Shown here one piece after another: positions 40,400-60,860 of a stretch of 64,000 nt of DNA. Source of the stretch: Clostridiales bacterium (lineage in GTDB: Bacteria > Bacillota > Clostridia > Christensenellales > Aristaeellaceae); contig JAIKYG010000003.1 in the NCBI GenBank assembly GCA_024683475.1, forward strand, positions 10,447 to 74,446, in the 5' to 3' direction. How positions within the stretch are numbered: the stretch's first letter is position 1; the number at the start of each line of letters is the position of its first letter. The translations under genes were made by a program, and so were the position numbers. The notes beneath the pieces were generated by a model that did not search any database, was not told the origin of the DNA, and saw only the letters and a list, made by a program, of their open reading frames with translations.

Positions 40400-40740
40400 A
40401 AAAACGAGCGATGTCTGTAAGCCGAGTTCTGTATTGGACGGTCATCTGTCTGGGCCTGAAGTCGCCAGCAGGCTCTAGCGATATTTGTAAGCGCGGCGGG
40501 CCACCGTATGTCGCTTAACTGATCTTGCACCGGATGGGGTTTACAGAACGGACAAGTTGCCAGGCCGTTGGTGAGCTCTTACCTCGCCTTTCCACCCTTA
40601 CAGCCGTAAGGCTGCGGTATATCTCTGTTGCACTCTCCCTAAAGTCGCCTCCGCCGGTATTTCGCCGGCATCCTGCCCTGTGGTGCTCGGACTTTCCTCA
40701 AACGCTTTCACGTCTGCGACCGTCTGGCATCCTCGTTTTA
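40400..40740 (-). ncRNA. rnpB: RNase P RNA (bacterial)
   Basis: The minus strand carries universal motifs GAGGAAAGUCCGAGC (40685-40699), GUAAGGGUGGAAAGG and ACAGAACUCGGCUUACAG. P1 pairs AAACGAG.GAUG with CAUCGCUCGUUU. The ends are good to about 10 nt. Confidence 0.9.
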
Positions 40741-48669: not shown

Positions 48670-49257
48670 TTACTTATCCACCCTGTCCATGAGGTTGCTT
48701 TTGGTATTGATCAGCACTGCGGCAACGCAGGTGAAAACCATCTCGGGGATCATGTACGAAGCATTATATACTATACTGTAGATCGGCGATACCATGCCCA
48801 TATCGTTCGGCCAAAGCGCGTCCCAGATCCACCAGCCGGAGATGAAATGACACACGAGCCTGAGCGTGAAGGTGAAAACGATACCCAGTATAATTGATTT
48901 CGCGTCAGCATGCTTTTCCGCGGAGAATATACCGCTCAAGCCGATAACGGTATAAGCAATAATATAGTCTAACAGGATAATGCCGACCGCCATGAGAAAA
49001 CCGGTCGCGTACTGGACGTTATCCAGACCGAAAACAAGCTGCAGCAGGCTGTGGGCAAACGCAGTCAGCATTCCGATTACTGTGCCGTGACGTCTGCATA
49101 CGATTATAAGGGGCAGCATGGACAATGCGGTCACGCCGCCGCCGAAGCCCCAGAACAGCTTTTCGATCTTGAAGAAGCTGAGGATGTTGGCTATGGCCAG
49201 CAGCACGGCGCACTCAACCAGCACATTCGTGTTTTTGATGGATTTCAGAGAACTCAT
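48670..49257 (-). CDS. thiT: ECF-type thiamine transporter S component ThiT
   Basis: 195-aa, roughly 6-TM protein directly behind a TPP riboswitch. Confidence 0.7.
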   Translation of the reverse strand: MSSLKSIKNTNVLVECAVLLAIANILSFFKIEKLFWGFGGGVTALSMLPLIIVCRRHGTVIGMLTAFAHSLLQLVFGLDNVQYATGFLMAVGIILLDYIIAYTVIGLSGIFSAEKHADAKSIILGIVFTFTLRLVCHFISGWWIWDALWPNDMGMVSPIYSIVYNASYMIPEMVFTCVAAVLINTKSNLMDRVDK

Positions 49258-49277: not shown

Positions 49278-49408
49278 AAAAAAGTATGCCCCATCTTATG
49301 CGGCATACGGCTGCGGTATTAGCTGCATCCCTACGCCGGCATAATCCGGATCAGGTTTTGGGGATTTCGGGCGATGCCCTCTCTCAGCCTTTCGGCTCTC
49401 CCTGCGCT
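49278..49408 (-). promoter_or_regulatory. TPP (THI-box) riboswitch with terminator expression platform
   Basis: The minus strand reads ...GGGAGAGCcgaaagGCUGAGAgagggc...CCCcaaAACCUGAUCCGGAUUAUGCCGGCGUAGGGA. It is followed by hairpin GUAUGCC/GGCAUAC plus U6 (49278-49308), then RBS GGAGGU. Confidence 0.9.
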
Positions 49409-49412
49409 GCAT

Positions 49413-49441: not shown

Positions 49442-49637
49442 GCTGTATTCTAAACTTAACAGATTCGGTGATGACATGACTGTAAGAGAATCAAAAAACT
49501 TAGTCAGAATAAACAGCATTTCTTGCAGAAGAAGTACATTATTTTGCCCGCCTATTGACTGTGCTGCGATTTATCGGGCGGTCGTTGTATTGATCCTAGA
49601 AAAACACGACTGATGTGGAAACGTTGATGTATAACAA

Positions 49638-49678
49638 AAAGCCCCAAATCACCGTATTGACCGGTTATTTGGGGCTTA
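49638..49678 (-). terminator. intrinsic terminator after tRNA-Thr
   Basis: On the minus strand: GCCCCAAAUaaccggucaauacggugAUUUGGGGC + UUUUU. Confidence 0.7.
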
Positions 49679-49751
<73 letters not shown>

Positions 49752-49832
49752 GCGCTGACAGCTTATTTATATTACCACAGAGGCTATAAGCTGTCAAGCG
49801 CATCAAACAGATTTAACAAAAATAGTTCTTAG

Positions 49833-52145
49833 TTACAGCTGCTTGCGGATTATCTTGCCGCTGGTCGTCTTGGGCAGTTCGTCCCTGAACACCACGATCC
49901 TGGGATACTTGTAAGGAGCCGTGCGCTGTTTGACGTAATTCTGGATCTCTTTTTTGAGCTCCTCGGTGCCTTCGGTGCCCTTTGTAAGCACTATGCTGGC
50001 TTTGACAACCTGTCCGCGAACGGGATCGGGTTTGGGAGAAACGCCGCACTCCAGCACGTAAGGCAGTTCCATAATGACGTTCTCGATCTCAAACGGCCCG
50101 ATCCTGTAGCCGGAAGACTTGATGACGTCGTCCACCCTGCCCACATACCAGAAATAGCCGTCCTCATCCCGCCAGGCGGTGTCGCCCGTATGGTAGTAAC
50201 CGTCGGAGGTATCTATGGCGGGCATGCCCTTTTCCTTGTCGTAATAGCCGGAGAACAGACCGTAGGGCCACGCCTTATCAACGCGTATGACGATCTCGCC
50301 GACCTCGCCCACCTGCACGCTTTTGCCCTGCGAATCCACAAGGTCAACATCGTAGCCCGGTACGGGTTTGCCCATTGAGCCGATCTTGGGCTGCATGCCT
50401 CTCAGGTTCGCGATCATTACGGTAGTCTCGCTCTGCCCGAAGCCTTCCATCACGCTCAGACCCGTGGATTCCTTGAACCTGTTGAAGACTTCCGGATTCA
50501 GCGCCTCTCCGGCGATCGCCGCGTGACGGATGCCGCTCAGATCGAAATTGCTCAGGTCCTGCTTTATCATGAAGCGGTACATCGTAGGCGGTGCGCAGAA
50601 GCTGGTTATGCCGTACTTTGCGAACATGGGCAGTATGTCGGAAGCGTCAAAACGGTCAAAGTCGTACACGAACACCGCGCACTCGTTCAGCCACTGTCCG
50701 TAAAGCTTGCCCCACATGGACTTTGCCCAGCCGGTATCGGAGATCGTCAGATGGAGTCCGTTCTCGCTGGTCTGCTGCCAGTAGCGCGCCGTGACAAAGT
50801 GTCCAAGCGGATATTTGTGGCAGTGTGTCGCGATCTTGGGATACCCTGTGGTGCCGCTGGTAAACACCATGAACAGCAGATCGTCGCCTTCAGGACGCTG
50901 TCCGTTTTGGGAAACATAGGTGGAACGGAACATGCGGAATTCGCTGTCGAAATCGTGCCAGCCTTCTCTCGTGCCGTCTACCATGATCTTGAGTTTGACC
51001 GTAGGCGACAGGGCGCACGCTTTTTCCACTTCGTCCGCGCAGCTGCCCAGAGACGTGCACATGACTGCGCTGACACCCGCGGTGTTGAACCGGTACGTCA
51101 GATCTTTTTCCAGAAGCTGGTTAGCCGCAAGCACGCCGACGGCGCCTATCTTATTGAGCGCCATCATGGCGATCCAGAACTGGTAATGCCGCCTGAGCAT
51201 CATGAGCACACGGTCGCCCTTCTTTATTCCCAAAGAGGTAAAGTAATTCGCGGCGCGGTTGGACAGCCTGGAAATGTCGGAAAAAGTAAACCTGGTCTCC
51301 ACCTTGTCGTGTGAAACGTGCAGAAGCGCCAGTTTGTCCGGCTTGGCTTTTGCCAGAACGTCGACCACATCGAAGGCGAAATTGAAGTGTTCCGTATTTT
51401 TATAGGATATGCTCTTAAGCGAACCGTCCTCGTTTTCATCGACATCGATGTACTTCGCCCAGATGCGCGCGCTGTCCGTTTCTTCTTTAGGCAGCGTCTT
51501 GACTTCCGCCTGCGCCAAAGCAGTCTCGGTCTTTGCGGAAAGCTCGGGCACGGGTTCGCCGCTAGGATTCAGCACTATCGCGTAGAAAAGGCAGTCTTCT
51601 CCGCCTACGGCGATCATTCCGTGAGGAGTGGCAGAATCGTAATAGATGCTGTCGCCTTCGGAAAGGATCTCCCAGTGGGTGCCTACCTGGACTTTAAGTT
51701 TGCCTTTTATGATTATGTCGCATTCCTGTCCGGCGTGACTGGTGAGCTCTATATCCCTGTACTGGGCTTCTTCGCTGTAGGCAGCGTTTACATACAGCGG
51801 CTCCGCGATGCGGTTTTTGAACTGGGCGGCAAGGTTGTAATAGATCATGCCGTGCGCCTGCTCGATACGCTGGCCTTCCCCGTTTCGCGTTACAGTGTAA
51901 TTGCTGAGGCGCGGGCTTGTGCCTTCGATGATATCCGTGACGTCGACGCCCAGCACCAGTGCGCAGCGGTAAATAAAGGCAAAGTTAAGATCGCTTCTGC
52001 CCTCTTCGCACATTACGTACTCTTCGAGGCTCACGCCCGTTTTAAGCGCCATATCCTCCCGGGATATGTTTTCGATAAGCCTGAGCTCCTTAATGCGCCC
52101 GGCCATCTCCTGCAGCTTAAACTCCAGCCCAGTCGTCTGTTTCAT
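49833..52145 (-). CDS. fusion protein: XRE-type HTH + cupin + AMP-forming medium-chain-type acyl-CoA synthetase
   Basis: aa 1-75 are an HTH_3 domain (IKELRLIENISREDMALKTGVSLEEY). aa ~110-215 are a cupin (SHAGQECDIIIKG...GDSIYYDSATPHG). aa ~250-770 are adenylate-forming (FTSGTTGYPK, YHTGD, SSGYRIGPFEIE, TTSGKIIRKQL). ATG 52145 lies behind GGGAGG. Confidence 0.85.
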   Translation of the reverse strand: MKQTTGLEFKLQEMAGRIKELRLIENISREDMALKTGVSLEEYVMCEEGRSDLNFAFIYRCALVLGVDVTDIIEGTSPRLSNYTVTRNGEGQRIEQAHGMIYYNLAAQFKNRIAEPLYVNAAYSEEAQYRDIELTSHAGQECDIIIKGKLKVQVGTHWEILSEGDSIYYDSATPHGMIAVGGEDCLFYAIVLNPSGEPVPELSAKTETALAQAEVKTLPKEETDSARIWAKYIDVDENEDGSLKSISYKNTEHFNFAFDVVDVLAKAKPDKLALLHVSHDKVETRFTFSDISRLSNRAANYFTSLGIKKGDRVLMMLRRHYQFWIAMMALNKIGAVGVLAANQLLEKDLTYRFNTAGVSAVMCTSLGSCADEVEKACALSPTVKLKIMVDGTREGWHDFDSEFRMFRSTYVSQNGQRPEGDDLLFMVFTSGTTGYPKIATHCHKYPLGHFVTARYWQQTSENGLHLTISDTGWAKSMWGKLYGQWLNECAVFVYDFDRFDASDILPMFAKYGITSFCAPPTMYRFMIKQDLSNFDLSGIRHAAIAGEALNPEVFNRFKESTGLSVMEGFGQSETTVMIANLRGMQPKIGSMGKPVPGYDVDLVDSQGKSVQVGEVGEIVIRVDKAWPYGLFSGYYDKEKGMPAIDTSDGYYHTGDTAWRDEDGYFWYVGRVDDVIKSSGYRIGPFEIENVIMELPYVLECGVSPKPDPVRGQVVKASIVLTKGTEGTEELKKEIQNYVKQRTAPYKYPRIVVFRDELPKTTSGKIIRKQL

Positions 52146-52386
52146 AGTTTCCTCCCAATAAAAAATCTCAGGACAGATCCTGAGACGGAAAAACCGCGGT
52201 ACCACTCAATTTCGTGTAAAACACGCACTCAAAACCCGTAACGCGGGCACACGGAGGGTTCTACTTGCCAAACGGCTTTCTTCCCCCGGCGGTAAAGCCA
52301 CACTGTTTCATCCGGGCGTCGCCTCGCACCATCCGGCGGCTCTCTTCAGCCTTATTGCTGGAACAGACTCTTTACCATTGCCATTA
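52146..52386 (-). promoter_or_regulatory. T-box riboswitch leader (specifier uncertain) upstream of the HTH-cupin-acyl-CoA synthetase gene
   Basis: Minus-strand elements are as follows. Stem I (52288-52382) has AG-bay AGAGAG and distal loop GGAUGGUGCGA. Stem II has a GAA/AGUAG S-turn. The F-box-like element is GCCCGCGUUACGGGU. Stem III is CGUGU-uuu-ACACG. The T-box sequence is AAAUUGAGUGGUACCGCGG (52194-52212). The terminator is UCUCAGGAUCUGUCCUGAGA+U6 (52160-52185). Confidence 0.85.
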
Positions 52387-52393
52387 TTTTGAA

Positions 52394-52422
52394 ATTTTAA
52401 CAGCGTATCGAAAAAATGTCAA
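52394..52422 (-). promoter_or_regulatory. sigma-A promoter of the T-box leader
   Basis: On the minus strand: TTGACA (52417-52422), 17 nt, TAAAAT (52394-52399). Confidence 0.65.
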
Positions 52423-52505: not shown

Positions 52506-52534
52506 TTGACAAGCAATCTGTCTGAATGTATAAT
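52506..52534 (+). promoter_or_regulatory. consensus sigma-A promoter of the tRNA-Ser pair
   Basis: TTGACA (52506-52511), 17 nt, TATAAT (52529-52534), 15 nt before the first tRNA. Confidence 0.75.
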
Positions 52535-52549
52535 AAGTGTTACCGGTTT

Positions 52550-52635
52550 GGAGAGATGGCCGAGTGGTTGAAGGCGCCGGTCTTGAAAACCGGTGATGTC
52601 GAAAGGCACCGGGGGTTCGAATCCCTCTCTCTCCG
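52550..52635 (+). tRNA. tRNA-Ser (anticodon UGA)
   Basis: Acceptor GGAGAGA/TCTCTCC, anticodon arm CCGGT-CTTGAAA-ACCGG, long variable arm, T loop TTCGAAT. Confidence 0.9.
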
Positions 52636-52652
52636 TCAGTTTCGTCCGCTTT

Positions 52653-52741
52653 GGAGAAGTACCCAAGTGGCCGAAGGGGCTCCCCTGCTAAGGGAGTAGG
52701 GTGGGATAACCGCCGCCCGGGTTCAAATCCCGGCTTCTCCG
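52653..52741 (+). tRNA. tRNA-Ser (anticodon GCU)
   Basis: Acceptor GGAGAAG/CTTCTCC, anticodon arm CTCCC-CTGCTAA-GGGAG, long variable arm, T arm CCGGG-TTCAAAT-CCCGG. Confidence 0.9.
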
Positions 52742-52744
52742 CTT

Positions 52745-52776
52745 CTCAGAGTCGAAAGACTCTGAGTTTTTTTTTT
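52745..52776 (+). terminator. intrinsic terminator after the tRNA-Ser pair
   Basis: CTCAGAGTC-gaaa-GACTCTGAG followed by T10. Confidence 0.85.
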
Positions 52777-52928: not shown

Positions 52929-55900
52929 ATGAAAAAGCTTGTCGCTTTCCTGCTGGCTCTGATCATGCTTCTGAGCCTCGCACAGACTGTGCCCATCGCG
53001 AACGCGGACGCCCCCCACACCCACAAATGGACGAAAGTGGAAGGCGTAAACCCCACGTGCACCATTGATGGCTGGGCATATTATTATTGCAGCGGATGCG
53101 GAGAATACAGAGATGAATCGCTGCCCGCGCTCGGTCACGACTGGGCAATAAAAGTATATACGAGCTACGCCGACTGCACCCATTACGGAGTGTTCTATTG
53201 GGTTTGCGCCCGCTGCGGCGCGCACTCGGCTACCGGCAATGACAAACCTCTCGGCCATGACTGGGGCGAGTGGAAAATCATCAAATATCCCACTCCCGAA
53301 GAAAACGGCCTCATGGAACGGGAATGCCAGCGCTGCGGCATTACGGAGCAAAAGACCATCACCATGGACGACATCCCGAACAGCGGGCTCAGGATCGAGG
53401 CCTGGGTAGTCTACGATACCGAATATGAGATCGGCGAGATGGGCAACTTTATAGTTAAATTCATAAACACATCCGACGCGCCTACCCTTCTGACCGGCAT
53501 AGATCTTTCATTTGCCGACGGTTCTGAAGACACGATCGATTTCAATGCTGCGTCTCCGCTGATTCTTGCCTCCGGCGAATCCACGACCGTGAATGCTGCG
53601 TATTGGATGAACGCGGACAACAAGGCGCATGACGACGATGACTATATCGATATCGATGTCACGGGCAGAGGCAAGCCCAACGGCAAAAACGACGAAATAC
53701 AATCCAATACCGTTTCTATCACATTCAGACTGAAAACCGAGGAAGATCCCGAGGAAAAGCCCGACCTGCTGCTCGGCGTATCTCCAAGAGTCAACGGCAT
53801 GAACACTTCTACCGTCAAAGTCGGGGACACGGTTTATTTCGATTACAGCCTTACGAACAATACAGAGAACGAGCTTGAGATCGCCAACATCAGGGAGTGG
53901 TACGGCGAAGCCAACATCGACAATGCAGATCCCTTCAGCGGCAATTACCTGAAAGCCGGAGAGACCAGGACGAGCTCCGCTTCCGGCGCCAAGGAATTGA
54001 TACCATATGTCGTGAAACTGGAGGATTTTGTCGGCGGCAAACTGAAAATCAACTTCTTTGCCGTAGGCCGCGATTACATCGATCATCCTTCCAACGTACT
54101 GTATGACCTCGCCTATACCAACAGCGTTGTTATCGAGCTTACGCTCGAAAATTATAAACCCTCATTCTCGCTGCAGGCGGAACTGATCGACTATCCACCG
54201 TTCAAGCTTGACCAGGATTACGCCTCCATCAACGTAATAATCGAGAACACTTCCGACAAAGACTTTATCGTCACCAGGCTGTACTACTATTCCGATAATG
54301 CCACAGCCTACACTATTGATCATCCTTTCGGCGACCTCGTATTCAAGCCGAACGATGTGCACAATCTCACGGTCAGTTATCTGGTTTCCTCCGCCGACCT
54401 CTGGCACAGCGACGAAGACATAGTTATCACTTTCGGCGCTGAAGCCGCCGTGGTGGATTCCGAAAGCGAAATGCCGATCTACAGCAACGAGGATGACGTG
54501 GACATTCCCTGGTACGAAGATCCCAACCTGGTCTTATACAAGTACACGGAAGGCCACGAATATGACGGCTACGTATACTCCGCGGGCGATCCCGTCGTAT
54601 ATAAGATCTTCATCCATAACACTTCGAAAGACCGTCCGATCTACTGCGCGACGATCTACGACGAACCCGAAGGACACGAACGGGTAACCGTCGCATCCTT
54701 CGACGAGATCGCGCCGCTGCAAAGCAATGAAGGCGAAGAGATAATCTATACCTACTACCTGACTCAGCAGGATATAGATGACTCCGTACAATTGTCTGAC
54801 GGGAAGTATTATTTCCGGAATAACGTTTACGCCAGCTATTACGTAAACGCCGGAAAATCGGGCGATCTCACCTGGAGGGACGACTACTGCTACGTTCCCG
54901 TTGACAAATATGACAAGTCTGATGTGGAGATCATAAAGACCGAGATCAGCCATTATGACGAGAGCAAAGGCTACTACGGAGCCGGCGAAGAGATAAAGTA
55001 TACCATAACCGTCGTCAACAATTCGGATCATCCCATACATATTTTGGGTATATACGACAGTTATGACAGCGATGCTGTTGCCGCAGACATCATCCTGCAC
55101 GCCACGGAATCCTACTCGGCGGATTATAAGATAACCGTGACCGAATATGAAGTCTCCTGGTTCCCGTCCATTTACAACCAGGCCTGGGTCAAATACGAAG
55201 AAGACGTCGACGGCGAGCAAAAGGAAGACCTCCGGTATTCCAACATAGTCGAAAGCCCCATCGGTCCCAAGCCCGAAGAGCATACCGAAGGTGATTCTGA
55301 AGCGCCCACGGTGATCAAGACTGCCGAGAACATGCCCAAGAACGGCTCTTACTATCAAAAGGACGAGCTGATACACTACGTTTTCAGCATTACCAACAAC
55401 TCTGACGAGACCCTTTTCGACACGAAGATCACCGACGAGATGAAAGGCAAAAACGAGGACGCCGATATCTGGATCGGCGACGTTCTGCCGCACGAGACCG
55501 CTATGGGAGACTTCTATTACACGGTCAAAGCGGAAGACTGCGTCGGCTTCCTCTACAACGAAGGCAGTATGTCTTACACTTCGGCAGACGGCGAGAGCCA
55601 CGTGATCTACCCCATCCCCTGCACCGTCGAGACCGAGATCATAGACCCTGTTCCGGAGGCGCCCAATGTAGTATTGGTCAAGAGCGCGCCCTTTGCACCC
55701 AAGGATGGACCGTTCTTCGTCGAAAACGAATCGATAGAGTATTGGATCGACGCTTCCAACCTTTCCGACGACCCGATATACGATCTTGAAATATACGATG
55801 ACCTTTTCGACGTGAATGCTCCGCTTGTGACGGTGCCTTACCTTGCACCATGGTCCAGCACGATCACTTACAAATTCTGCCATATGGTCACCAAGGAAGA

Positions 55901-57638
55901 AGCCGAAAGCGAAACCGGTTCGCTGAACAACCAGGCATACGCATACTTCCATACCGAAGAAGAGTTCGCAGGAAACACTCCGGAGAAGGTCTACAGCAAT
56001 GCGCTTTCAGTGCCTGTGGGAGTCCCCGAGAAGCCTATGTTTGATCCCGAAAGCGTATATATGACAAAGGAAGTCCTGAACTCCCCGCTGTACGGCGACG
56101 CTTTCACATATAACGAGGCGATCTACTTCCTTATCACGATCTACAACAACAGCGATTACCCGGTAAGCGTTTCTTCGGTATACGATTTCTACTGGGGCAG
56201 CGATTTCGGCAGCAATAACTACCTTCCCGGAGGATTCATACCGCCGCACTCCGTTCTGCCGATCCCGTATTCGCATGTTGTCACCTGGGCAGAAGCAAAT
56301 TCCTCTGGTCACTTCCTCACCAACGCTGCAAACGCCTCCGTGATCGTCAACTTTGAAGACAAGGAAGAACAGTACGATCTCGTCTGCAGCCCGGTCACCG
56401 TGAAACTTGACTATATACCCGATCCGCCGGTGGTGCCCGGGGATCCCGTTGTCTTCAAAAAGGTGCTTGGCGACCCCGCAAAGGTCTACAAGGAAGGCGA
56501 GGATATCTGGTTCATCCTGTTCCTGTACAACACTTCGGGCAGCACCATCTATGACATAGCGGTGTATGACCAGTTGGTGCCCGGGTTCTATCTCGACGGC
56601 TTCAGCATTTTGGGAGACGGCGAGGTGTACTCGAAAGCCTTCAATTACTCCGTGACCAAGTTTGATGCCGAAGTCATCGGCAGCGTGACCAATATCGGCT
56701 GGTTCACCCTGTCCATGCCTACTCGCAACACTCCCACCACATTCTACACCAATGAGGTCACCGTGGCTTGCGGTAAGGATCCCGAACCGCCCAGGACTCC
56801 TTCTTCCCATCCTGACAGCTGCAAAGTGACGCTTGTCGGCAAGGGCGAGGGCGCATGGGAATACATGACCGTGTTCTGTGCCGAACACAACTCGGTCAAA
56901 GCCGGATTCCGCAAGCTGCTCGATGCATGCGAGACCGACGCAGACAGGACCGTTGCATATCAGGTGGGTCTCGATATGTGGACGAGAGCGCTCGAAAGAG
57001 AGTACGAGAAGCTGATCAAAAACGCCCCGTCCGAGGAAATCGCTTCGGCGCTCAACAACGACAGCGCCGTATTTGGCGGTTACCTTAAATCTGTCCGCAA
57101 CAGGTTGTCCGATGCCGGTCTTGATGAAAACGAGATCAACGCGCGCATCATCCGGCTCATAACCGACCGTGTGACCGAGCTGTGCTACACCTTTGGCGAC
57201 GGCAAGGACGAACGCAGGGACATCCTGACCGACAAGGTCCCGGAGATCAACCGCGTAGAGGCGAACGCTTGCTCTGCCGTGTACGACAACGCGCTGAGCG
57301 GTAGCTATACGGTTACTTTCAACGTGTGCAACGGCCACATCATGCTGCTCAGGACCATTGACCGCACTCTCGCCGCCACGCAGAACGATCCGGAGCTCAA
57401 GGCTGCGGGATGGATACGCGCCAAGAGCTACTGGCAGGCCAAGCTCACAACGGACTACGACACGCTGGCCAATCAGGCGGGCGCCGGAGTTTACGCCTTG
57501 AGTGAGAGAGCTGCCTTCCTTGCAATGGTCAAAACGCACGGCGCGCTTTACACCGCTGTTTACGGCGACGAAGCGCTTACCGAAGAACTCACGACTACCA
57601 TGATGCTGAAGCGCGCTTTGGAACTTGACGCCAGGTAA
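52929..57638 (+). CDS. giant (1569 aa) secreted multi-module protein: Cys-rich N-terminal modules, >=9 DUF11/CARDB-like modules, duplicated Cys/helical C-terminal module
   Basis: Signal peptide MKKLVAFLLALIMLLSLAQTVPIANA. There are three GHxW...C...CxxCG modules (aa ~27-135). A module signature x-Y-x-I-x-I-x-N-(N/T)-S-(D/G)...IYD recurs at least 9 times (examples: IKYTITVVNNSDHPIHILGIYD, IHYVFSITNNSDETLFDTKITD, IWFILFLYNTSGSTIYDIAVYD). The C-terminal roughly 315 aa are helical with paired Cys. There is no LPXTG, SLH or TM anchor. Confidence 0.85.
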   Translation: MKKLVAFLLALIMLLSLAQTVPIANADAPHTHKWTKVEGVNPTCTIDGWAYYYCSGCGEYRDESLPALGHDWAIKVYTSYADCTHYGVFYWVCARCGAHSATGNDKPLGHDWGEWKIIKYPTPEENGLMERECQRCGITEQKTITMDDIPNSGLRIEAWVVYDTEYEIGEMGNFIVKFINTSDAPTLLTGIDLSFADGSEDTIDFNAASPLILASGESTTVNAAYWMNADNKAHDDDDYIDIDVTGRGKPNGKNDEIQSNTVSITFRLKTEEDPEEKPDLLLGVSPRVNGMNTSTVKVGDTVYFDYSLTNNTENELEIANIREWYGEANIDNADPFSGNYLKAGETRTSSASGAKELIPYVVKLEDFVGGKLKINFFAVGRDYIDHPSNVLYDLAYTNSVVIELTLENYKPSFSLQAELIDYPPFKLDQDYASINVIIENTSDKDFIVTRLYYYSDNATAYTIDHPFGDLVFKPNDVHNLTVSYLVSSADLWHSDEDIVITFGAEAAVVDSESEMPIYSNEDDVDIPWYEDPNLVLYKYTEGHEYDGYVYSAGDPVVYKIFIHNTSKDRPIYCATIYDEPEGHERVTVASFDEIAPLQSNEGEEIIYTYYLTQQDIDDSVQLSDGKYYFRNNVYASYYVNAGKSGDLTWRDDYCYVPVDKYDKSDVEIIKTEISHYDESKGYYGAGEEIKYTITVVNNSDHPIHILGIYDSYDSDAVAADIILHATESYSADYKITVTEYEVSWFPSIYNQAWVKYEEDVDGEQKEDLRYSNIVESPIGPKPEEHTEGDSEAPTVIKTAENMPKNGSYYQKDELIHYVFSITNNSDETLFDTKITDEMKGKNEDADIWIGDVLPHETAMGDFYYTVKAEDCVGFLYNEGSMSYTSADGESHVIYPIPCTVETEIIDPVPEAPNVVLVKSAPFAPKDGPFFVENESIEYWIDASNLSDDPIYDLEIYDDLFDVNAPLVTVPYLAPWSSTITYKFCHMVTKEEAESETGSLNNQAYAYFHTEEEFAGNTPEKVYSNALSVPVGVPEKPMFDPESVYMTKEVLNSPLYGDAFTYNEAIYFLITIYNNSDYPVSVSSVYDFYWGSDFGSNNYLPGGFIPPHSVLPIPYSHVVTWAEANSSGHFLTNAANASVIVNFEDKEEQYDLVCSPVTVKLDYIPDPPVVPGDPVVFKKVLGDPAKVYKEGEDIWFILFLYNTSGSTIYDIAVYDQLVPGFYLDGFSILGDGEVYSKAFNYSVTKFDAEVIGSVTNIGWFTLSMPTRNTPTTFYTNEVTVACGKDPEPPRTPSSHPDSCKVTLVGKGEGAWEYMTVFCAEHNSVKAGFRKLLDACETDADRTVAYQVGLDMWTRALEREYEKLIKNAPSEEIASALNNDSAVFGGYLKSVRNRLSDAGLDENEINARIIRLITDRVTELCYTFGDGKDERRDILTDKVPEINRVEANACSAVYDNALSGSYTVTFNVCNGHIMLLRTIDRTLAATQNDPELKAAGWIRAKSYWQAKLTTDYDTLANQAGAGVYALSERAAFLAMVKTHGALYTAVYGDEALTEELTTTMMLKRALELDAR

Positions 57639-58650: not shown

Positions 58651-58892
58651 TTGACAATTATTCCCGATGGTTTAGAATAATGATATATTGCGAATGACGG
58701 AGAAAAATACCTCTGATGCCCCCACAGAGAGCGGCGGGAAGCTGGAAACGCCGCGGGTAAGCTAAGAGGGAGACCGCCTCCCGACGCGAAACGTGCGGGC
58801 ACGTTACAGCCCATAAAGCTCGCCGATATTCGGCGGAAACAAGGTGGAACCACGGGCAATACCGCTCGTCCCTGTACGGGACGGGCGTTTTT
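58651..58892 (+). promoter_or_regulatory. promoter + canonical T-box leader of thrS (Thr, ACC specifier)
   Basis: Promoter TTGACA (58651-58656), 16 nt, TAGAAT. K-turn GCG-AAU-GA / GA-CGC. AG-bay AGAGAG. Specifier loop GAG-ACC-G with ACC at 58773-58775. T-box AAGGUGGAACCACGGG (58841-58856). A 10-bp terminator stem plus U5 lies at 58863-58892. Confidence 0.9.
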
Positions 58893-58922
58893 GTATACAG
58901 ATCAAAATTGCGGAGGCGCGAA

Positions 58923-60860
58923 ATGATAATCAGTTACAAAGGCAGCAATTACGAATTTGAAGAAAGGATCAACTCGCTGGATATACTCGGCCAGATCGAC
59001 CCTGACGCAAGAAAAGCGGCTTTGGCCGTAAAGCTTGACGGCGAAGTCACCGAGCTCGCCGCTGCCGTAAAAGGCTCCTGTGAGCTTGTGCCCCTGTTTG
59101 GCAGCGATCCGGAAGGCCTGCGCATACTGCGCCACAGCGCCAGCCATGTACTGGCTCAGGCGGTAAAGCGCCTTCGTCCGGAAGCAAAACTCGCTATCGG
59201 ACCTGCCATAGACAACGGTTTTTACTATGACTTCGATACGGACGAACCCTTCACTCCCGAGTTCCTTGCTCAGGTCGAGAAGGAAATGAAGCACATCATA
59301 GGCAAAAACTCCCGTCTGGAAAAGTTCGTACTGCCCCGGGAGCAGGCTCTGGAACTTATGAAAGACGAACCGTACAAAGTCGAGCTCATCAACGATCTGC
59401 CCGAAGGCGAAGACATTTCCTTCTATCGCCAGGAAGGCTTTACTGACCTGTGCGCAGGCCCCCACCTTCCCAATCTGGGCAGGATAAAGGCGTTCAAGAT
59501 CACGTCCACCGCCGGCGCATACTGGCGCGGCAGCGAAAAGAACAAGATGCTTAGGCGCATCTATGCCACTGCTTTTGCTTCCAAGGAAGAACTGGACGCC
59601 TATCTTAAGCAGCAGGAAGAAGCCTTAAAGCGTGACCACAACAAACTGGGCCGTGAGCTTGAATACTTCACAACGGTCGATATAATCGGCCAGGGCCTCC
59701 CCATCATCCTTCCCAAGGGCGCACGAGTGATACAGAAACTGCAGCGCTGGGTCGAAGATACCGAGCAGAAGCGCGGTTATCTGCTTACGAAAACGCCGTA
59801 TTTTGCCAAGCGTGAGCTCTACAGGCTTTCCGGCCACTGGGATCACTATCGCGACGGCATGTTCATTATGGGCGATCCCGATGATGAAAGCAAAGAATGC
59901 TTCGCGCTGCGTCCCATGACCTGTCCTTTCCAGTATCAGGTCTATCTGAACCGCATGCGCTCCTACCGCGATCTGCCCATGCGCCTCGGTGAAACGTCCA
60001 CCCTGTTCCGCAATGAGGATTCCGGCGAAATGCACGGCCTTATCCGCGTAAGGCAGTTCACGATCTCGGAAGGCCACCTGGTGCTCAGACCGGATCAGCT
60101 GGAGCAGGAGTTCCGCCAGTGCCTTGAACTTGCGCACGAGATGCTCGATACCGTAGGTCTTTGGGAGGACTGCACGTTCCGCTTCAGCCAGTGGGATCCC
60201 GCCAACCCCAAGAACAAGTACGAAGGCACGAAAGAACAGTGGGACGAGGCTCAGGCGGTAATGGGCAAGATCCTCGACAATATCGGTCTTGAGTATTCCA
60301 TAGGCATCGACGAAGCCGCCTTTTACGGGCCCAAGCTCGACATCCAGTACAAGAACGTGTTCGGCAAGGAAGACACCATCGTGACTATCCAGATCGATAT
60401 GCTGCTTGCCGCGCGCTACGGTATGGAATATGTGGACAAAGACGGGCAGAAAAAGACGCCATATATCATCCACAGGACTTCCCTCGGCTGCTACGAGCGC
60501 ACGCTTGCCTACCTTATCGAGAAATATGCAGGCGCAATGCCTCTTTGGCTGAGCCCCGAGCAGGTCAGGATAATGACCATAACCGACAGAGCGGACGCCG
60601 CCGCCTACGCCCTCAAAGCCAAACTCGAGGCTGCAGGCATCAGCGCGGAAGTTGATGCCCGCAACGAGAAGATCGGCTTTAAGCTCAGAGAAGCGCGTCA
60701 CGACAAGCTTCCCTACATGGTCGTCATAGGCGACAAGGAAGCCGAAAACGGCACCGCTGCGGTAACAAAGCGCGGAACTCAGGAATCCGTAGTAATGTCC
60801 GCTGAAGATTTTATTTCCCAGGTCCTGGGCGAGATCGACAGCAAAGACAGAAGCTTCTGA
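58923..60860 (+). CDS. thrS: threonine--tRNA ligase
   Basis: TGS and editing N-terminal domains are present, with class II core motifs (FRNEDSGEMHGLIRVRQF, HRTSLGCYERTLAYLIE) and a C-terminal anticodon-binding domain. ATG 58923. Confidence 0.95.
   Translation: MIISYKGSNYEFEERINSLDILGQIDPDARKAALAVKLDGEVTELAAAVKGSCELVPLFGSDPEGLRILRHSASHVLAQAVKRLRPEAKLAIGPAIDNGFYYDFDTDEPFTPEFLAQVEKEMKHIIGKNSRLEKFVLPREQALELMKDEPYKVELINDLPEGEDISFYRQEGFTDLCAGPHLPNLGRIKAFKITSTAGAYWRGSEKNKMLRRIYATAFASKEELDAYLKQQEEALKRDHNKLGRELEYFTTVDIIGQGLPIILPKGARVIQKLQRWVEDTEQKRGYLLTKTPYFAKRELYRLSGHWDHYRDGMFIMGDPDDESKECFALRPMTCPFQYQVYLNRMRSYRDLPMRLGETSTLFRNEDSGEMHGLIRVRQFTISEGHLVLRPDQLEQEFRQCLELAHEMLDTVGLWEDCTFRFSQWDPANPKNKYEGTKEQWDEAQAVMGKILDNIGLEYSIGIDEAAFYGPKLDIQYKNVFGKEDTIVTIQIDMLLAARYGMEYVDKDGQKKTPYIIHRTSLGCYERTLAYLIEKYAGAMPLWLSPEQVRIMTITDRADAAAYALKAKLEAAGISAEVDARNEKIGFKLREARHDKLPYMVVIGDKEAENGTAAVTKRGTQESVVMSAEDFISQVLGEIDSKDRSF

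Follow-up and report, generated by a model that had tools for sequence, protein, structure and literature searches.

A predicted tRNA-Val T-box leader upstream of an HTH-cupin-acyl-CoA synthetase gene in a Christensenellales bacterium

The leader and the gene behind it

The stretch analyzed here, referred to as the window, comprises 64,000 nt of contig JAIKYG010000003.1 from a Clostridiales bacterium (GenBank assembly GCA_024683475.1). On its minus strand, it carries a gene for a protein in which a helix-turn-helix (HTH) and cupin module is fused to an acyl-CoA synthetase, and a leader of about 240 nt lies between a sigma-A type promoter and the ATG of this 770-codon open reading frame (ORF; Table 1). 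Judged by sequence and predicted folds, the leader is a member of the T-box family, the RNAs sensing uncharged tRNA, in each structural respect checked, with the exception of the K-turn and the score of the curated family model. Its counterparts precede nearly all orthologous genes examined and point to valine as the amino acid sensed, and the gene probably serves the salvage of isobutyrate to valine.

A first-pass annotation of the sequence had proposed this arrangement, and much of it was confirmed. The promoter, given there as TTGACA-17-TAAAAT, was recovered and additionally features a TG extension; GGGAGG and the ATG at 52145 are both present where they had been placed, and the Pfam domains of the ORF agree with the HTH-cupin-acyl-CoA synthetase of 770 aa that had been described. 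The statement that the leader displays every T-box hallmark held for the AG bulge, the distal loop, Stem II, the F-box, Stem III, the T-box sequence and the terminator. It did not hold for the K-turn, which is missing, nor fully for the S-turn of the specifier loop, which is reduced in the window leader. In the cmscan alignment, the Stem II helix has three non-canonical pairs marked per strand.

Table 1. Elements of the leader and domains of the ligase gene in the window
Feature	Position	Strand	Details and basis
Sigma-A type promoter	52394..52422	-	TTGACA 52422-52417, 17-nt spacer, TG-extended TAAAAT 52399-52394; 11/12 matches
Stem I	52289..52381	-	Base helix GGUAAAG/CUUUACC without K-turn, plus specifier loop; cmscan alignment
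Stem I AG bulge AGAGAG	52345-52340	-	cmscan alignment
Stem I distal loop GGAUGGUGCGA	52334-52324	-	cmscan alignment
Predicted specifier GUG (Val) and 3' purine	52298..52301	-	GUG 52301-52299, G52298; column comparison in 74 orthologous leaders
Stem II and Stem IIA/B region	52235..52288	-	Stem II with GAA/AGUAG S-turn, followed by Stem IIA/B region; cmscan alignment
F-box CGUUA	52243-52239	-	cmscan alignment
Stem III	52213..52225	-	Hairpin CGUGU-UUU-ACACG; cmscan alignment
Antiterminator	52181..52212	-	Contains the T-box sequence
T-box sequence AAAUUGAGUGGUACCGCGG	52212-52194	-	Within the antiterminator
Intrinsic terminator	52160..52186	-	9-bp hairpin GUCUCAGGA-UCUG-UCCUGAGAU at 52186-52165, followed by U-run
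Shine-Dalgarno sequence GGGAGG	52156-52151	-	Sequence
ATG start codon	52145-52143	-	Sequence
HTH-cupin-acyl-CoA synthetase gene	49833..52145	-	770 aa; ORF and Pfam domains
HTH_19/HTH_3	51918-52097	-	aa 17-76; Pfam
Cupin_2	51576-51749	-	aa 133-190; Pfam
AMP-binding	50241-51353	-	aa 265-635; Pfam
AMP-binding_C	49854-50090	-	aa 686-764; Pfam

The search with the Rfam T-box model (RF00230) that the first-pass annotation had called for returned, with permissive filters, a significant match at 52178-52387 on the minus strand, which spans the full model (model positions 1-219) with 83.2 bits (E-value 1e-18 for the region, 1.6e-16 when the 64-kb window is taken as a whole). The Rfam gathering score of this family amounts to 93 bits, and no T-box emerged from a default gathering scan of the entire window, which is a threshold effect and not a sign of absence. 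A second T-box in the window (58685-58876, plus strand; specifier ACC for threonine, followed by G) lies directly upstream of the threonyl-tRNA synthetase gene thrS (ORF 58908-60860) and scores 86.2 bits, likewise below the threshold. Thus, a score of 83 bits is no argument against the authenticity of the ligase leader; the Rfam threshold under-calls T-boxes in this lineage, as the default scan misses the thrS leader, too. Much of the lower score of the window leader is probably due to the loss of the K-turn and the reduced specifier-loop S-turn. The orthologous leader of another genome (L010) clears the gathering score with 105.4 bits. What the window leader lacks against the cutoff is a matter of statistics rather than of structure.

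Folding of the terminator and antiterminator alternatives, also suggested at the outset, showed that both structures form. The minimum free energy fold of the whole leader is undistinctive (z = -1.0) and, the RNA being bistable, uninformative, so that the two alternatives were folded separately. The antiterminator segment adopts the canonical form of 4 bp UGAG/CUCA, a 7-nt bulge UGGUACC and 4 bp GCGG/CCGU (-5.3 kcal/mol), and UGGU within the bulge (52204-52201) would pair with the ACCA 3' end of a tRNA. The terminator hairpin reaches -12.8 kcal/mol (z = -4.75), a value matched by none of 200 shuffled sequences. The segment CUCA at 52184-52181 is needed by both the 5' arm of the terminator and the antiterminator, and the two structures are therefore mutually exclusive.

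Orthologous leaders and the amino acid sensed

The orthologous loci (L001-L080) are the 80 best of at least 569 relatives detected in species-representative genomes, and each encodes a full-length orthologue of the fusion protein. All of them derive from metagenome-assembled genomes of gut or rumen origin, which with few exceptions are labelled as Clostridia (Oscillospiraceae, Acutalibacteraceae, Christensenellales, and others). The 129 fusion-type genes in these loci fall cleanly into two groups by identity to the window protein. The group named Val type here is 63-80% identical to it and features GUN leaders, and the group named Ile type is 55-61% identical and features AUC (Ile) leaders in 44 of 44 cases. 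In total, 144 T-box cores are found across the 80 loci.

An aligned T-box of its own precedes the Val-type orthologue in 74 of the 80 loci. Together with the significant model match, this bears out the initial claim of a real T-box in control of an acyl-CoA synthetase fusion gene, and it answers the question, raised at the same time, of whether leader and gene occur together. In nearly all loci, the start codon is preceded at a distance of 75-120 nt by the exact core TGGTACCGCG; at least 66 orthologous leaders carry it unchanged. Promoters of the form TTGACA-17-TGnTAnnAT are kept upstream of the orthologous leaders, and the AGAGA and GGUG..AG residues of the AG bulge and distal loop are invariant in alignments of 5 and of 67 leaders. 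Five Val-type genes occur without a T-box of their own. Four of these begin 27-40 nt behind a paralogue of the Ile type, with which they presumably share a transcript. Among these tandems, L030 alone shows an Ile T-box upstream of the paralogue; L006 and L074 are cut off by the end of the contig, and in L077 the T-box core was not found upstream of either fusion gene. Besides, two loci (L046:1498-2997 and L077:1671-3176) feature a third AMP-binding ligase of about 24% identity, which consists of the ligase domain only and lies upstream of the tandem of Ile- and Val-type genes.

The first-pass annotation had named no specifier and had proposed to compare the orthologous leaders for it. In the 74 aligned Val-type leaders, the specifier column reads GUA in 65, GUC in six, GUG in two (the window included) and CUG in one, so that GUN is present in 73 of 74 leaders with codon variation confined to the wobble position. 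The base following the codon is a purine throughout (G in 62, A in 12), and the base preceding it is U in 70 leaders, C in three and G in one. As GUN is the only frame which yields one amino acid throughout, the comparison points to valine, and on this evidence the window leader is predicted to be specific for tRNA-Val with the specifier GUG and the purine G52298. The call rests on comparative data because the column register of cmscan proved unreliable for the codon, being shifted by one position in the thrS leader used as a control. Covariation in the helix that adjoins the codon on its 3' side (GAAG/CUUC, GGAG/CUCC, GGGG/CCCU) fixes the geometry of the specifier. Moreover, the bulge UGGU implies a cognate tRNA with the discriminator A73; tRNA-Val carries A73, tRNA-Cys U73, and tRNA-Trp G73.

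Other frames were considered and rejected. The frame UGU (Cys) would mix cysteine, arginine and glycine, because the 5' neighbour varies between U, C, and G; the frame UNR would include stop codons, and for UGG (Trp) the bulge UGGU misfits the discriminator of tRNA-Trp. In the Ile-type leaders, a UCN (Ser) frame is self-consistent. It was rejected since the geometry of these leaders (codon, 1 nt, 5-bp helix and GAG) matches that of the Val leaders and AUC is invariant.

Both types of ligase leaders share the atypical core AAUUUGAGUGG with GAGUGG instead of the usual GGGUGG. This common unusual core suggests that leader and gene were duplicated as a unit, after which the specifier was switched; duplication followed by a specifier switch is a known mode of T-box evolution (PMC2494555). 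Leucine leaders (CUC/CUG) occur in the loci as well, mostly with GGGUGG, and those examined precede LeuA-like genes (L001 8412-8650, L022 12774-13008). Leu leaders with the GAGUGG core are found on the minus strand of L010, L018, and L021.

The ligase, its partner genes and the proposed salvage of isobutyrate

The best match of the ligase part in the Protein Data Bank (PDB) is 3ETC, the structure of MacsMa from Methanosarcina acetivorans (E-value 1.9e-180, 49.9% identity over 515 residues), an enzyme which favours 2-methylbutyrate and adenylates C3-C8 acids in vitro (PMC10455477). Among NCBIfam models, MbcS (NF047394) ranks first with 428.9 bits, followed by acetate-CoA ligase. The MbcS protein of Staphylococcus aureus selectively activates exogenous isobutyrate and 2-methylbutyrate (PMC10026030). 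In the window enzyme, G570 (in EGFGQSE) takes the place of the acetate-restricting Trp414/416 of acetyl-CoA synthetase (Acs), and W456 (in RYW) is the equivalent of the pocket residue Trp259 of MacsMa; both are invariant in 15 orthologues. The motif YHTGD is likewise intact and invariant. By these residues and matches, the window enzyme is to be regarded as a relative of the short branched-chain acyl-CoA synthetases and not as an Acs, although orthologues are called "acetyl-CoA synthetase" in some source databases, and isobutyrate is its most likely substrate.

Thirteen residues separate the Val from the Ile type, each being at least 90% conserved within either group and differing between them. 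Only positions 474 and 579 fall into the ligase domain, of which 474 is the only clean separator with alanine in the Val type and glycine in both the Ile type and MacsMa. As alanine is the bulkier residue, this fits isobutyrate as the probable acid of the Val type and 2-methylbutyrate as that of the Ile type.

In most relatives, the genes following the ligase match a route toward valine. Among loci with enough downstream DNA, same-strand genes behind the Val-type gene encode a P-loop protein (53 of 74 loci), VorB (49/65), VorA (47/62), VorC (44/59) and IlvE (36/55). A ferredoxin and the subunits of the 2-oxoisovalerate:ferredoxin oxidoreductase (VOR) thus follow in about 75% of the orthologous loci, and the aminotransferase IlvE in about 65%. 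Both VorB and IlvE exceed their NCBIfam cutoffs, with 558.6 bits for VorB (cutoff 399) and 483 bits for a representative IlvE from L013 (cutoff 307). The conserved array is complete in L022, where three units stand in succession, each with its own promoter and T-box. The first comprises an Ile T-box and the ligase paralogue; the second a Val T-box, the ligase, a CbiA/ParA-like P-loop protein, a 2x[4Fe-4S] ferredoxin, VorB, a thiamine pyrophosphate (TPP) beta subunit, a POR gamma subunit and a class-IV aminotransferase of the IlvE type; and the third a Leu T-box (CUC) and a LeuA-like gene. The P-loop protein of about 220 aa (L022:8331-8993), which lies between the Val-type ligase and the ferredoxin and VOR genes, belongs to the CbiA/ParA/NUBPL-like group of NTPases; delivery of Fe-S clusters to VOR is one possibility for its role.

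Considering these observations together, the leader is probably a functional, transcription-attenuating tRNA-Val T-box which induces a ligase for the salvage of isobutyrate to valine, and this reading is supported by comparative genomics. With tRNA-Val charged, the terminator at 52186-52165 would form and transcription would halt before the gene. Uncharged tRNA-Val would pair its anticodon with the GUG specifier and stack its elbow on the platform of AG bulge and distal loop, whereupon its free ACCA end would pair with the UGGU bulge, stabilize the antiterminator and let RNA polymerase enter the gene. The ligase would then convert isobutyrate to isobutyryl-CoA, which VOR would reductively carboxylate to 2-oxoisovalerate for transamination to valine by IlvE. 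The Ile-type ligase would feed 2-methylbutyrate into the same VOR and IlvE, and the LeuA-like enzyme under control of the Leu T-box could draw leucine from the same 2-oxo acid. In this way, salvage of an abundant fermentation acid of gut and rumen would be switched on whenever valine is scarce. AMP-forming ligases drive the acid to acyl-CoA and are effectively irreversible, and induction by uncharged tRNA-Val would be senseless for catabolism, both of which argue for a flux toward synthesis. For the organism of the window, it may be inferred that the leader responds to tRNA, that isobutyrate is the substrate, that the flux takes this direction and that VOR and IlvE are encoded elsewhere in the genome. 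The initial proposal that an acyl-CoA would be carboxylated to an amino-acid precursor is supported for the branched acids, in view of the Val specifier, the likeness to MacsMa and MbcS and the operons with VOR and IlvE. It is not supported for phenylacetyl- and indoleacetyl-CoA, since the specifiers seen in this family are those for valine and isoleucine.

Several observations weigh against the valine-salvage reading and are taken up here together with the alternative readings. Within the leader itself, besides the score below the gathering threshold, the GA motif of the K-turn at the base of Stem I is missing, as the window features Watson-Crick pairs (UGG...ACC) in place of the UGA...GAG found in most orthologues. 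A K-turn in Stem I is common in the T-box family, though not universal; in the tyrS leader of Bacillus subtilis, K-turn mutations reportedly impair antitermination, and the efficiency of the window leader could differ for this reason. It also does not fit that one Val-type protein (L073, 64% identity) is preceded by CUG (Leu) instead of GUN. This codon is one G-to-C change away from GUG and may represent a specifier switch under way or an error. The replaced GA motif, the reduced specifier loop and the low score could indicate that the leader has decayed in this genome and now serves as no more than a constitutive attenuator or a leaky 5' untranslated region, and the K-turn is altered in the nearest relative L081, too (UAG instead of GAG). 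This is nevertheless quite unlikely, given that the exact T-box core, the bulge with UGGU, the residues of AG bulge and distal loop, the specifier with its purine, and the overlap of terminator and antiterminator are all intact, and that the bona fide thrS T-box of the window is sub-threshold as well. Moreover, the intact terminator of -12.8 kcal/mol would silence an otherwise well-conserved gene.

A second group of contrary observations concerns the genomic context. In tblastn searches of the 64-kb window with VorB, VorA, the P-loop protein, IlvE, and LeuA, no match was obtained, and a second ligase paralogue was looked for in the window without success. The ligase gene of the window is solitary, being flanked by tRNA genes with unrelated housekeeping genes as neighbours, and the same holds for L081, the closest relative examined (80% identity). 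As vor and ilvE are lacking within the 64 kb, the link to VOR is an extrapolation for this organism. A solitary ligase would suit a different purpose, namely the sparing of valine, in which isobutyryl-CoA mainly primes iso-branched fatty acids, as with MbcS in S. aureus, and the breakdown of scarce valine for the primer is avoided; MbcS, the best NCBIfam match, is documented in the priming of branched-chain fatty acids (PMC10026030). On the whole, valine sparing is unlikely, though conceivable for solitary copies such as that of the window. VOR and IlvE, present in about three quarters and 65% of the orthologous loci, lead to a 2-oxo acid and an amino acid and not to lipids, no fab genes were seen among the recurrent neighbours, and the Ile and Leu T-boxes on adjoining genes indicate a regulon for amino-acid supply.

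The third set of reservations touches the protein. The equivalog cutoff of the MbcS model (850 bits) is not reached, so the substrate is derived from family resemblance and the protein is a relative of MbcS rather than MbcS itself. In addition, isobutyrate salvage leaves the role of the conserved HTH-cupin module unexplained. A further alternative is that the enzyme activates another carboxylate (acetate, propionate or butyrate, an aromatic acid, a 2-oxo or hydroxy acid) or acts chiefly as a DNA-binding regulator, the Val T-box then mediating a general starvation response. The database names and the second-ranking acetate-CoA ligase model agree with this, as do the C3-C8 range of MacsMa (PMC10455477) and the fact that HTH-cupin modules are typical of XRE-family regulators. 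It is very improbable, however, as the Trp of Acs is replaced by G570 and the MacsMa-type W456 is present, the Val or Ile specifiers track the paralogue, the operon partners are VOR and IlvE, and no aromatic-amino-acid specifier was found among the leaders.

The HTH-cupin module is conserved to the same degree as the enzyme part and accommodates 11 of the 13 discriminating residues (positions 11, 59, 60, 72, 73, 78, 94, 97, 100, 102, and 117); the ligase domains of both types are nearly equally similar to that of the window protein, with 67% for the Val and 65% for the Ile type. Hence, the paralogues seem to have specialized mainly in the regulator-like module, which points to a paralogue-specific role in sensing or DNA binding. 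The N-terminal part (aa 1-200, nt 51546-52145) obtained only a weak PDB match, to 1Y9Q, which extends across both domains. When the promoter regions of 75 leaders of the Val type and 43 of the Ile type were inspected by eye, which is not a rigorous motif search, no palindromic operator shared among them was apparent; only the promoter and A/T-rich upstream tracts stood out. Tentatively, it is conceivable that the HTH-cupin-ligases act as bifunctional trigger enzymes, which would combine the activation of isobutyrate in the Val type, or of 2-methylbutyrate in the Ile type, with sensing by the cupin, while the module would bind DNA or gate the enzyme allosterically. The module would then sense the cognate amino acid, the 2-oxo acid, or the branched acid, and control would be exerted in two layers, by tRNA charging through the T-box and by metabolite sensing through the cupin.

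Further features were noted in the surroundings of the ligase gene. A tRNA-Thr(GGU) gene (49679-49751, minus strand) lies 82 nt past the ligase stop codon on the same strand and has its own TG-extended promoter at 49797-49769. No terminator was detected between the two genes (window 49635-49833, minus strand), and a hairpin with a U-run, recognized by eye, follows the tRNA at about 49677-49635. With a hairpin only behind the tRNA gene and no terminator in front of it, ligase transcripts may run through the tRNA. Further downstream, a TPP riboswitch (49311-49412, minus strand) scores 65.3 bits, which exceeds the gathering score. It has a promoter of its own (49441-49413) and lies in front of a gene for a ThiT/YuaJ-type thiamine transporter (ORF 48670-49257, minus strand), an ordinary arrangement. 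Divergent from the T-box promoter, the region 52506-52766 (plus strand) features a perfect TTGACA-17-TATAAT promoter (12/12 matches) driving two tRNA-Ser genes (UGA and GCU; 52549-52742) with a terminator at 52745-52766. Besides, the window contains a bacterial class A RNase P RNA (40401-40735, minus strand; 241.6 bits) and an ORF of 1569 aa (52929-57638, plus strand), whose only Pfam match is DUF7507 and which may encode a large surface or repeat protein with no relation to the ligase leader.

Significance and relation to known systems

It has been known since the 1960s that many anaerobes of gut and rumen need or use isobutyrate, 2-methylbutyrate, and isovalerate for the synthesis of valine, isoleucine, and leucine, and this is also why dairy cattle receive branched-chain volatile fatty acids in their feed. 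Allison and co-workers reportedly demonstrated that rumen anaerobes convert isobutyrate to valine and 2-methylbutyrate to isoleucine. The carboxylation of isovalerate to leucine is cited as well (PMC7356843), and a paper from 2020 describes the reverse reaction of VOR as "not proven yet" for Prevotella (PMC7709123). Still, the genes of this branched-acid route are poorly defined in the dominant Clostridia of rumen and gut. Here, the specifier offers a built-in label, as it would link one ligase paralogue with valine and its tandem copy with isoleucine, both tied to the module of VOR and IlvE. For a cross-feeding pathway with influence on the amino-acid economy of the gut, this provides candidate genes that can be tested directly; it also corrects mis-annotations as "acetyl-CoA synthetase", widens the T-box regulon to acid-activating and ferredoxin-dependent carboxylating enzymes and draws attention to a fusion of regulator and enzyme. 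If the proposal is true, the pathway would allow many gut and rumen Clostridia to obtain all three branched-chain amino acids from fermentation acids supplied by cross-feeding.

The first-pass annotation had regarded this wiring as undescribed. In line with that, acid ligases or VOR as T-box targets were not found in the surveys PMC2494555 and PMC3766115 including supplements, in the paper on the TBDB database (PMC7778990) or in full-text searches of the literature, though an earlier mention in passing is possible. Databases of the TBDB type probably hold these leaders without comment. The regulatory logic is standard, as starvation for an amino acid induces its supply; it is the target class which is unusual.

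With regard to the enzyme, the window protein has in common with MacsMa the pocket Trp, the exchange of the Acs Trp for Gly, and the motif YHTGD. MacsMa differs in being archaeal, lacks both the HTH-cupin module and a T-box and features Gly where the window enzyme has Ala474. MbcS is the best-scoring curated family for the window ligase, yet it feeds the synthesis of branched-chain fatty acids and has no HTH-cupin domain; T-box regulation of MbcS is not mentioned in PMC10026030 or PMC13584741. The XRE-family HTH-cupin regulators, represented by PDB 1Y9Q from Vibrio cholerae, display the same layout of HTH_3/HTH_19 and Cupin_2 as the N-terminal 200 residues, whereas in the window protein a complete enzyme is attached to this module.

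Regarding the pathway, the orthologous operons encode the three steps of reductive carboxylation in the rumen (VOR, EC 1.2.7.7), namely activation, carboxylation, and transamination. The classical route was defined by labelling, whereas the genes, the paralogue-specific amino acids and the regulator are proposed here from computation alone. As for the regulator, the T-boxes of branched-chain amino-acid operons and of valS, ileS, and leuS, e.g., the Leu T-box of ilv-leu in B. subtilis, belong to the same RNA family with the same parts and logic. In contrast to those, the ligase leaders use the core GAGUGG and not GGGUGG, the window copy is devoid of the Stem I K-turn, and the target is an acyl-CoA ligase instead of a tRNA ligase, the acetolactate (ilv) pathway or a transporter. 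Most relatives continue into a ferredoxin-dependent 2-oxoacid synthase and an aminotransferase, an arrangement which would amount to salvage from a fermentation acid.

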